Of a DNA stretch of 25,665 bases, positions 6,001 through 9,000 are shown piece by piece. Made by a program: the position numbers. This stretch comes from a virus (lineage: Duplodnaviria; Heunggongvirae; Uroviricota; Caudoviricetes). Each line of letters opens with the position of its first letter. Within the stretch, counting starts at the first letter, position 1. The DNA lies in the IMG/VR virus record IMGVR_UViG_2609460344_000024; one strand, written 5' to 3'.

Positions 6001-9000
6001 TTCAGCGAGAACTGATATCAGGGCTAATTACTGGAGTCTACTATCCGGTCCTTCGTGGCGGTTTAATGAATACCTCAGTGTGTATTCAATGGCAGGTGTT
6101 GCGGTTGCAAAAGTAACTTATGATTTGAAAGTTAACGACAATCTTAATGGTGGTGTAGGTAGTTTTTCTGAAAGTAACAGCACCAAAAAAACGTCTATTG
6201 CATGGTCTGTCGGCGCGCAATTTAACTTCAATGAAAGTGTTACTATGGACGTCACTTATGAAAGCTCAGGCTCTGGCGACTGGAAAACTGATGGTTTATT
6301 TGCAGGCATTGGCCTGAAATTCTGAGTAATACCCGACAACATGTCATAACCCGCTGTGATGGCGGGTTTTTTGTTGCCCGTGCAGGGCAAAAATCGTAGA
6401 TTATGCGCGGGTGTCTTTCGGCTGATGGCTGGAAGGTGAACCTGAAGGCCTGATGTGGAAAGGCCCCGAGTCAAACATTTTGTTTAACCCGAGGCCCTAA
6501 CCATCATACCTTAAGCAAGTAGAAGGTTAGCGCCTCTCCACTCAGGAGGCAAGCGCTATGTCGCAAAAATCGCTCATCACCGTCACAATTTGTATGACGG
6601 TAATCTTCACCATCTGGATGTTACACGGCTCGTTGTGTGAGTTCCGGCTGAATTTGTGGGGAGCGGAGTTTGCGGCGTTCTTACAGTGTAAGCAGTAGGA
6701 AAACCGCGACGGGGACGAAAGTCCCCGTCAACTGGTTGCTGAGGTTCAGCCGATATGGCACCCGTTTCTGGTGAGAGAATGGACGACAAAATTCTCCGGT
6801 ATATGCAGCGTGTTGTGAGAAATTCCCGCAACCCTGAATTTATGAATGAAGTTAAAGACGCCTGCCTTAAAAAGCAGGCGTTTTGTTTTGAGGCACCTGA
6901 TGGCTTTCTGGTGCTGCGTTCTGTGCTCAGTGCTGATGGTATCCCTTATGTTTTGGTGTTGCTGGGCGTGTGTACGGGGAGTAACAGCGTTGAGCGTTAT
7001 CTGCCGGAGGTGAAGACATTAACCCGTCTGGCTGGCGGACGCTGGGCTGAATTTCATACGGCAAGACGGGGATTTATCCGGCTGGGAAAACGTCTGGGCT
7101 TTGAGCGAATGCCGGATGATGAGGATGGCTTCATGGTGTTCAGGATAGCGGTCTGACTGCCACTGTATTCATTATCGTGTGTAAACCAATTGCAATTCAC
7201 ATTCTGACCCTGCCCCGGCAGGGTTTTTTGTTATCCAGGGGGCCATAATGGGCGGAAAAAAAGGCGGTGGTGATACCAAAGTAAAACCAACAGCAGCGCA
7301 AATAGCACAGGAAGAAGTGGCCTGGAAAGGGTGGCAGGATTATCAAAAAATCCTCCGCCCGGCTGAAGATAACTTCATGGAAAAGGTCGATGACCTGAAC
7401 AGTGAGCAGCAGTACGACAATATTGCTGGCACCACAAATCTGGGGTATCAGAAACAGTTTGGCGAAGCACGGAAGGAGCTGGCGGGTAATCTTGCTCAGT
7501 CCGGTGTTGACCCGTCCAGTGGTCGCTTTAACGCGGTAATGAATGCGAACCAGAGTGATCAGGTAACCGGGCAGATTGACACAACCACACGGGGGCAGGT
7601 ATCGCAGGCAGATAAGTATGTTGCCGGGCTACAGGATGTTGCTGCTCTCGGTTCTGGTCAAAAGGCGGATGCGTTACAGAGTTTTAACTCGCTGGCAGAC
7701 AGCAGTCTGGCAAAAGCTAAATCGGACGCACAGGCTGCGTTTACGAAACAGCAGGGGCGAGCCTCTCTTGTTGGCGCTGGTTTGGGTGCGGTAGGTGCAT
7801 ATGCGATGTATAAGGCTGGCGGTAGCGGAGGAAGTGGCGGTGCTAAAACACCTGGCACCGGCGCTAATGCCATTCAGCATCAGGCTCAGAACTGGAGACT
7901 GTGATTATGGAGTACGGTAAATACGAAACACTTGCGAGATACGGTTATACCGGAGCTGCCCGTCCACAGGGTGACTGGCAGACGTCAGCAGCGCTGACAC
8001 GCCAACAATACGACGACTGGCGAACCAGATATTTGCCCCGCGTGGCAAGGCTGGCTGACCTTGGCGAGAACAACAGCCTGATGAATGCACAGCTTGCCCG
8101 GGTGGGCGGCCTTGCCACTTCCAGTCTCCGTACAGCGCAGATGGCGCAGGATAACCAGATGGCGAGATACGGGGTAAGCCGCCCGGATAATCCCAACAGT
8201 AACACACTGGGTTTGCGTAATGCTCTGGCAATTGCTGGCGCGAAAAATGGTATCCGTGAAGCAGAGCAGGATCGCCAGATGAACATACTGACGGGGGCTT
8301 CTGCACCTGCAAGACAACAACTGAGTGTTGGCGGAAAACTGGTGTCAGCGTAAGGGGGCAATATGGGATACGGTTTACTGGATATTGCGAATCAGTCGCG
8401 GCGTGAGGCATTACAGGGAATAAGTGATGCCGACAGACGACGTGAAGAAATTGAGGCCGCGAACAAACAGATGGCGGCGCAACAGAAAGCGCAGAACAAA
8501 CAGAATATCGGCACGGGAATTGGTACGGGTGCAGCTATGGGCGCTGCTGTTGGTGGTCTCCCCGGTGCGGCTATTGGTGCTGTCATAGGTGGTATTGCTG
8601 GTTCTTTGTTTTAAGGAGTGGTGAATGAGCGGATTTGCACAGGGTTTACTTGCCGGATTCAGCACGGTTGACCAGGCAATGACCCGTCGTAAGGAACTTG
8701 GTTTGCGAGAAGCACAGCTTGCTCAACAACAGAAAAATAACGAGCGCGATTTTGAATTTGCACAGTCGCAGTTTGAACATAATAAAGACGTTGATCAGCG
8801 GAACTTTGATTACAGAGCCAAAGTCGACGACCGTAATTATGCACTGCAGGAAAGGGAGTTTAACGCCAACCAGAATTACCGGAATGCGTCGCTGGGTATG
8901 GAGCAGCAGCGACTCCGGATGCAGAAATACAACCAGCGACGGCTTGAGTATAACGATATGCTGGCGCGCGATCAGCCTGTGATGGCGGCGCTTGGAAAGG

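Follow-up and report, generated by a model that had tools for sequence, protein, structure and literature searches.

In the hok/mok/sok (parB) locus of plasmid R1, the toxin messenger is described through a small set of RNA elements, namely tac, fbi, the mok-SD/dcb stem (SD, Shine-Dalgarno sequence) and a 3' stem-loop; translation of mok up to the hok SD is mandatory there, and mutants of the mok start codon abolish Hok synthesis (PMC9841398). Mutations in the last stem-loop of the truncated R1 mRNA also abolish toxicity, apparently through exposure to 3' exonuclease (PMC9841398). For a second module of the Hok family, hokW-sokW of Sakai prophage 5 (Sp5), experiments have established a toxin-antitoxin pair (Takada et al. 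2021, PMC8621323): RecA-dependent appearance of HokW accompanies the loss of sokW after addition of mitomycin C, and deletion of the locus halves phage release (PMC8621323). In aapA3 of the Helicobacter pylori aapA/IsoA family, 3' trimming turns an inert full-length mRNA into the active form, and the toxin's own SD is sequestered by one structure after another (PMC9841398). Here, we describe a Hok-type locus in a 25,665-nucleotide (nt) stretch of tailed-phage DNA (IMG/VR record IMGVR_UViG_2609460344_000024; hereafter, the window) that has most of the RNA anatomy of the R1 locus and in which no mok frame is found.

We regard it as highly probable that the region from about 6374 to 6763 (~390 nt) amounts to an entire type I toxin-antitoxin cassette of the hok/sok kind, mobile and inserted, as a moron, in a short-tailed prophage of the Shiga toxin (Stx) type (Sepvirinae-like), where lom lies on one side of it and the virion genes on the other. 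More tentatively, and somewhat short of calling it probable, we propose that this prophage hok, assigned to cluster 72 of a recent Hok survey, is a widespread and functional mok-less hok/sok system, in which the change from full-length to truncated mRNA gates Hok synthesis at the SD of hok itself and the antisense RNA Sok re-closes the SD hairpin besides triggering decay.

The cassette holds nearly every RNA feature of R1 hok/sok, and its elements map one-to-one onto those of the R1 model (PMC9841398). Shared with R1, by sequence and prediction, are a Hok-family peptide, a dedicated promoter, the fold-back of a 5' tac onto a 3' fbi element, a GAGGC...GCCUC target hairpin, an SD hairpin, a hairpin after the stop codon that forms the 3' end of the processed RNA, a Sok consisting of a 5' tail and a terminator hairpin, and a Sok promoter with its -10 element, 17-base-pair (bp) spacer and -35 element overlapping the hok SD region. 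In an R1-like plasmid locus the full-length form is 391 nt long and ends at the fbi element, the truncated form is 354 nt long, and the Sok promoter (TATCCT / 17 bp / TTGCGC) is laid out as in the window; the segment removed between the two mRNA forms is ~33-37 nt in both the window cassette and the R1 type. There are also differences: the window cassette has no mok, its peptide is 46 amino acids (aa) long rather than 52 and 34% identical to that of R1, the loop of its 3' hairpin is of the GNRA type rather than GCAG, and its nucleotide identity to the R1-like locus in a global alignment is ~41%.

The first-pass annotation of the window had reported a 46-codon open reading frame (ORF) with an AGGAGG ribosome-binding site, and both the sequence and the list of ORFs agree with it. 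The encoded peptide, MSQKSLITVTICMTVIFTIWMLHGSLCEFRLNLWGAEFAAFLQCKQ, matches the Pfam Hok/Gef profile PF01848 over residues 8-44 with 33.2 bits (gathering score 22, E 4e-8), so that the comparison proposed as a check on the Hok-type assignment did not refute it, and it matches PHROG 251 ('MokW-like host killing') over its full length (residues 1-46) with 85.8 bits (E 2.8e-24). On these scores, the Hok/Gef match is not due to chance. It is the single Hok-like ORF that tblastn finds in the window. All seven residues conserved at more than 80% in the survey logo (M1, C16, T18, L30, C31, E32 and E41) are present, with equivalents, read by eye, at M1, C12, T14, L26, C27, E28 and E37, and residues 6-22, read from the sequence alone, form a hydrophobic stretch. 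The closest named paralog is the chromosomal HokA of E. coli K-12 (47.5% identity over 40 residues), which shares the tail ...SLCE...EFAAFLxCK... and provides the best NCBIfam match; the score is, however, far under the equivalog cut-off, and the peptide is therefore not HokA.

The limits of the cassette emerge from its relatives. We drew a diversity set from E. coli genomes and IMG/VR, in which 59 distinct cassettes were counted (57 for the folding tests). Relatives at 75-83% identity are homologous over window positions 6389-6763, and the homology block, from the promoter to 6763, recurs in five different contexts: after lom (Stx phages), after ogr (P2-like prophages), between J and the tail-fibre gene, on a plasmid, and beside ykgM. 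The promoter motifs TTGCCx and TAnAnT keep a constant spacing in every one of these contexts, even where the spacer sequence differs. Transcription of hok is predicted to start at G6409, the position that coincides with position 1 of the Rfam RF01794 alignment; in the alignment of relatives the predicted start lies at GGGTGCC, and the conserved block ends exactly at the GGCACCC that is the complement of this 5' end. Positions of all features are collected in Table 1.

Table 1. Features of the hok/sok-type cassette in window coordinates
Feature	Position	Strand	Details
hok promoter (predicted)	6374-6402	+	-35 TTGCCC (6374-6379), 17-bp spacer, -10 TAGATT (6397-6402)
Full-length hok mRNA, inert fold-back form (predicted)	6409-6763	+	355 nt; limits from homology and fold
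tac-like 5' element GGGUGUC	6409-6415	+	Pairs with 6757-6763 (full-length RNA) or with 6459-6467 as tac-stem (truncated RNA)
Second fold-back helix	6418-6425	+	UCGGCUGA, pairs with UCAGCCGA at 6746-6753 in the minimum free energy (MFE) structure
Upstream ORF (uORF)	6453-6500	+	ATG 6453 preceded by GAAGG; 15 codons in the window
Sok-like antisense RNA (predicted)	6516 to ~6458	-	~59 nt: 5' tail, terminator hairpin and UUUCC tail
Sok 5' tail, single-stranded (predicted)	6516-6499	-	~19 nt
Sok terminator hairpin (predicted)	6498-6460	-	Uninterrupted 18 bp
Sok-target (sokT-like) hairpin, truncated mRNA	6491-6536	+	GAGGC-CUAACC (6491-6502) pairs with GGUUAG-GCCUC (6525-6536)
Sok-recognition region	6508-6522	+	Masked in full-length RNA by 6732-6745, a segment lost on predicted 3' processing
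Sok promoter	6524-6552	-	-35 TTGCCT (complement of 6547-6552, overlaps hok SD), 17-bp spacer, -10 TAACCT (complement of 6524-6529)
hok SD AGGAGG	6544-6549	+	8 nt 5' of ATG; GGAG invariant in the family
hok coding sequence	6558-6698	+	ATG 6558 to TAG 6698; 46 aa; Hok/Gef family, cluster 72 (peptide 72_1589)
3' hairpin, 9-bp stem with GAAA tetraloop	6708-6729	+	GACGGGGAC (6708-6716), GAAA (6717-6720), GTCCCCGTC (6721-6729)
fbi-like 3' element GGCACCC	6757-6763	+	Last conserved bases of the cassette

The predicted full-length RNA folds with an MFE of -153.6 kcal/mol (z = -7.6), its 5' and 3' ends paired. Across 32 diverse cassettes, the helix between the tac-like and fbi-like elements is 95.9% paired and the second fold-back helix 86% paired, changes in the latter being mostly one-sided. 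Covariation comes from the helix that masks the Sok-recognition region, in which five pairs have changed on both sides (GC 21/AU 11; AU 17/GC 13; CG 11/UA 10). Taken together, the helices specific to the full-length form are paired in 88% of alignment cells, compared with 23-48% when their partners are slid by 1-3 columns. In the same fold, the hok SD lies inside a closed hairpin, GCGCC...GGCAAGCGC / CUCC...GGAG. A 322-nt RNA that ends just past the GNRA hairpin refolds, and its 5' end then joins 6459-6467 in the tac-stem. RNAalifold, applied to the 32 cassettes, recovers the tac-stem, the target hairpin and the 3' hairpin. The target hairpin (consensus columns 90-102/125-136) is, in an alignment with the R1-like locus, the positional homolog of the R1 mok-SD/dcb stem, and its loop, CUUAAGCAA (6510-6518), includes a YUNR-type CUUA/UUAA.

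One natural variant bears on the fold-back. In IMGVR_UViG_2529293141_000015, unrelated sequence replaces the promoter and the 5' tac region, and the cassette is intact from the Sok terminator onward; judged from its sequence, this variant is a natural recombinant and should be without the fold-back.

The hairpin that follows the hok stop codon had been noted in the first-pass annotation as a perfect 9-bp stem with a GAAA loop. The stem and loop are as described, with nine perfect pairs, and no run of T follows on the plus strand; as to its role, a protective stem-loop fits better than a transcript end. Four stem positions show compensatory changes (columns 316/326, GC 16/AU 15; 317/325, AU 17/CG 11/GC 2; 310/332, AU 28/GC 4; and a fourth, GC 29/AU 2), and the loops are mostly of the GNRA type (GAAA, GAGA, GCAA, GUAA), though not in all members. 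In the full-length RNA, the stem is lengthened by pairing of AACCG (6702-6706) with CUGGU(U) (6733-6737), and the fold-back element lies a further 28 nt downstream. Because the plus strand has no T-run there, and because conserved elements of the hok mRNA lie downstream, we predict by analogy with R1 that this hairpin is the 3'-terminal protective stem-loop of a processed hok mRNA of ~322 nt. A transcription terminator in the same place, serving either hok on the plus strand or an antisense RNA on the minus strand, appears extremely improbable, even though a pattern scan classes its minus strand, on which CGGTTTTCCT comes after the stem, as terminator-like. On the plus strand the missing T-run argues against such a function, as do the covarying mask partner at 6732-6745 and the conserved fbi-like element, both of which sit downstream of the hairpin; on the minus strand, the AAACCG behind the T-run is accounted for by the plus-strand helix AACCG/CGGTT, and the neighbouring genes are all on the plus strand.

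Opposite the hok leader, we predict a Sok-like antisense RNA with a promoter and terminator of its own. The minus strand of this segment folds at -31.8 kcal/mol (z = -6.1), whereas the plus strand forms an interrupted hairpin at -17.8, and in each of the 57 distinct cassettes folded the minus-strand form has the greater stability; the invariant G-U pairs of the Sok hairpin become A.C mismatches if read on the plus strand. The -10 element TAACCT is the complement of the invariant AGGTTAGCGCC and is kept in 58 of the 59 distinct cassettes. The -35 element varies (TTGCTC, TTGCCT, TTGACT, TTGTCT), and the spacer measures 17 bp in 49 of the 59. An earlier proposal, that a minus-strand -10 lies at the complement of 6503-6508, does not hold: that stretch is the least conserved in the cassette, and the conserved promoter is situated ~20 bp to its right. 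A -10 at the earlier site would lie in or next to the antisense terminator hairpin, and the RNA would start inside that hairpin. The least conserved stretch corresponds instead to the predicted Sok 5' tail, and it covaries with the 3' mask segment. Such a pattern is as expected of a specificity determinant in genomes with up to nine copies of the cassette.

The first-pass annotation had found no convincing mok frame, and we confirm this: whichever of ATG, GTG and TTG is taken as start and whichever frame is read, no upstream ORF in the window extends across the hok ATG, and plus-strand stops close all three frames at 6512, 6520 and 6528. The same test was positive in both controls, the hokW locus and the R1-like locus. 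Such a frame is likewise missing from 42 of the 59 distinct cassettes; in the remaining 17 it begins at one of three sites. An AUC/AUA start at the position equivalent to that of R1 mok was considered and rejected, the frame running for only 3 codons before UAA. In the hokW locus and in the R1-like IncFII plasmid locus, the mok-type ORF is in-frame with hok and amounts to an N-terminal extension from 57 nt upstream; this in-frame arrangement is unlike the shifted frame described for R1 itself.

Several chromosomal hok loci are inactivated. The cassette might similarly be a translationally silent relic that has kept its RNA features while Hok is no longer made from its own transcript without mok. 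The requirement for Mok translation in R1 (PMC9841398), the upstream stops in all three frames and the variable length of the ORFs that begin at ATG 6453 (1 to 62 codons) would all agree with this. Nevertheless, the 45-46 codon hok ORF is intact in 59 of 59 distinct cassettes, the ratio of non-synonymous to synonymous substitution rates (dN/dS) of the peptide is 0.2-0.4 between clades, and a comparison with the Sakai-type allele gives 7 synonymous and 0 non-synonymous differences. Given this purifying selection and the intact ORFs, the peptide of the mok-less cassettes is very likely translated. The hok promoter, the Sok promoter, the mask helix and the 3' hairpin are moreover maintained, with compensatory changes, and the cassette has spread to at least five mobile contexts and 1750 genomes. 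We therefore judge a silent relic to be unlikely.

Also unlikely, and slightly more so, is that the uORF from ATG 6453 stands in for mok, in which case ribosomes translating the uORF would open the structure further downstream unless Sok blocked them. Its ATG is invariant in nearly all cassettes and lies at the 3' edge of the Sok-complementary region, and in 6 distinct cassettes the ORF extends across the hok start in the manner of mok. Across relatives, however, neither its length nor its frame is conserved, and with hok as reference its end ranges from -160 to +82. The 58 nt that separate its stop from the hok ATG in the window are too many for the SD hairpin to be unwound, and ATG 6453 itself falls within a conserved helix of the tac-stem region. 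The variation in length from 1 to 62 codons also led us to dismiss the uORF as a conserved leader peptide. The invariance of ATG 6453 could possibly reflect RNA structure or a vestigial mok start.

Since no mok frame is present, ribosomes would have to initiate at the strong hok SD itself, and the mok-less switch that we favour would operate as follows. By analogy with R1, the full-length hok RNA would be inert; slow 3' exonucleolytic trimming would halt at the GNRA hairpin (~6730) and thereby remove the fbi element and the mask; and the trimmed RNA would refold into the tac-stem and the target hairpin showing its YUNR loop. The Sok 5' tail would bind the target loop, and the duplex would be degraded, in R1 by RNase III. 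Where Sok decays without being replaced, upon prophage loss, shut-off of host transcription or induction, Hok would be made and the inner membrane depolarised. For the step that replaces mok coupling, we infer that AGGUUAGCGCCUC would be captured by GAGGC-CUAACC in the processed RNA, GCGCCUC being taken by GAGGC in the truncated form, which would loosen the SD hairpin; Sok bound to GAGGC-CUAACC would free AGGUUAGCGCCUC, and the SD hairpin would close again.

Partition-function calculations of accessibility from the SD to the AUG gave 0.245 for the full-length RNA, 0.329 for the truncated RNA and 0.238 once the Sok site of the truncated RNA is blocked. This small shift goes the way the model predicts, consistently so in 49/57 and 57/57 cassettes, and it lends weak support to the mok-less switch.

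Several results weigh against the interpretation of the cassette as a functional mok-less hok/sok. The accessibility calculation failed its positive control, in that the known opening of the mok SD in the R1-like locus was not reproduced. The helix between the tac-like and fbi-like elements is nearly invariant, and covariation thus speaks neither for nor contrary to it. By analogy with R1, where mok is needed, a mok-less copy might be poorly translated from its own transcript. A generic promoter scan did not call the Sok promoter, which is weak by consensus; the scan missed it because the -10 fits the consensus at only 3 of 6 positions. Rfam RF01794 gives no match at its gathering threshold (35.1 bits vs 59); the sub-threshold match is nevertheless full-length (model 1-157; plus strand, 6409-6569; E 2.6e-6 in a 501-nt search) and in this respect counts in favour of Sok. 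The NCBIfam HokA equivalog model NF007290 scores 38.4 bits, below its cut-off of 89, and the peptide is also under the cut-offs of the NCBIfam Hok-subfamily models. Finally, no intrinsic terminator follows 6763 on the plus strand, and the first terminator-like site is at 6863-6880. The hairpin there (6858-6881) is G+C-rich, has T-runs on both strands, resembles a terminator and is located inside ORF 6755-7156; it may end the primary hok transcript. The core of the earlier interpretation is supported by the profiles, the RNA anatomy, the covariation and the literature on the identical peptide: a type I toxin of the Hok/Gef family, a structured hairpin on its 3' side, the lack of a convincing mok and, probably, a change in regulation.

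Among described systems, hokW-mokW-sokW is a Hok-family type I module on the same kind of Stx2 phage, and it is the only hok locus of these phages to have been studied by experiment. The window locus is nevertheless not hokW-sokW, a possibility ruled out because peptide and position differ: HokW has 51 aa and starts MKQQKAM..., its gene is found at the right end of Sp5 (ECs_1245, annotated as MokC-like), and its mok is in-frame; the window contains no copy of the HokW start sequence, even with up to 3 mismatches allowed. Sp5 in fact has two hok loci, namely a window-type cassette (L102 42470-42826, with an identical peptide) and hokW/mokW (L103 5420-5632). Consequently, the published hokW-sokW deletion strain still holds a window-type cassette, and the phenotype reported for it may be too small. 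Should the mok-independent model be right, the cassette would share the control logic of type I systems in which folding of the mRNA governs the toxin's own SD, such as aapA/IsoA, whose toxin family and RNA sequences are unrelated.

The hokW-sokW precedent (PMC8621323) also raises the question of role, as opposed to mechanism. The first-pass annotation had suggested that the toxin would act as an addiction or abortive-infection moron; hokW-sokW points to assistance in lysis and phage release. Hok might be made at prophage induction and aid phage release, so that the main role of the cassette would be the timing of lysis rather than addiction. The window cassette belongs to the late operon in the phage type that also carries hokW-sokW, and Sp5 has a copy; the cassette is also found, however, in P2-like prophages, on a plasmid and beside ykgM, a distribution that fits a generic selfish or stabilising module. 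On balance, we consider lysis timing as the main role conceivable though rather unlikely. A PADLOC search returned no defence-model match for the cassette. Prophage stabilisation, help in lysis (as for hokW) and exclusion of other phages are the candidate roles.

The toxin gene itself is already known from RefSeq, PHROGs and the recent Hok survey. The 441 bases around the ORF recur in 1750 of the 5426 complete E. coli genomes (about one third) and in 198 phage records, the majority from Stx-converting phages. The PGAP/RefSeq label is 'Hok/Gef family protein' (WP_000078907.1), the neighbouring genes encoding an Ail/Lom protein and a hypothetical protein, and one RefSeq phage record names the ORF 'MokW-like host killing'. 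The description of the ORF as unannotated is therefore accurate for some records, such as the Sakai reference, and not in general, PGAP annotating it routinely. In the Sakai genome, 430 bp between lom (ECs_1236) and ECs_1237 are without a feature, yet the cassette with an identical peptide is there. In an alignment-based scan of species-representative genomes, only 5 loci were recovered, and three of these are probably contaminants. An 857-bp 'Xanthomonas pisi' contig, a Planococcaceae metagenome-assembled genome and a Vagococcus assembly contain the cassette in identical or near-identical form, for which assembly contamination is the most likely explanation.

The identical peptide is entry 72_1589 of the survey, which counts 61 Hok clusters, and a representative of one of high abundance, Hok cluster 72 (Escalera-Maurer et al., bioRxiv 10.1101/2025.08.07.668861). 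It was cloned as LRP157 for an arabinose-induced toxicity assay in which 42 of 45 Hok constructs were toxic, and the three constructs named as non-toxic do not include 72_1589 (bioRxiv 10.1101/2025.08.07.668861); by the survey's account, toxicity of the peptide has thus already been shown. The survey is confined to coding sequences and, by its own statement, leaves Mok, Sok and mRNA ends aside (bioRxiv 10.1101/2025.08.07.668861); the amino-acid sequence is therefore covered there, unlike the RNA anatomy and the absence of mok. We found no description of mok-less hok loci in the literature searched, which left out key older papers (e.g. Pedersen and Gerdes 1999; Steif and Meyer 2012).

Elsewhere in the window, the gene immediately downstream (6755-7156, plus strand) encodes a hypothetical protein of 133 aa, and its annotated ATG at 6755 overlaps the fbi-like element. 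PHROG 610 aligns to this protein from residue 9 only (profile 1-124 of 124), and the true start is therefore probably ATG 6779. At 22246-22331 on the minus strand, a full-length match to Rfam sRNA-Xcc1 (RF02221; 73.4 bits vs gathering 53, E 7e-12) lies close to the right prophage end, with an AntA-type antirepressor ORF on either side; the start of the overlapping GTG-start ORF 21582-22367 is probably set too far out, the AntA domain beginning only at residue 75. A molybdopterin oxidoreductase gene (PF00384, PF01568, PF04879) occupies 23269-25665 on the minus strand, is cut by the end of the window and marks host DNA, which places the prophage/host junction at ~22.9-23.3 kb.

Mok-independent control is the sole possibly new aspect of the locus, and the absence of mok in so common a family is possibly an unreported variant of a known system. 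The regulatory model for Hok rests on R1, in which mok is indispensable, and the cassette described here is a natural test of whether mok coupling is necessary. Both hok loci occur in Stx2 phages such as Sp5, and the Sakai reference annotation leaves the window-type cassette out; studies of toxin-antitoxin effects on Stx-phage induction, lysis timing and prophage stability should count both.

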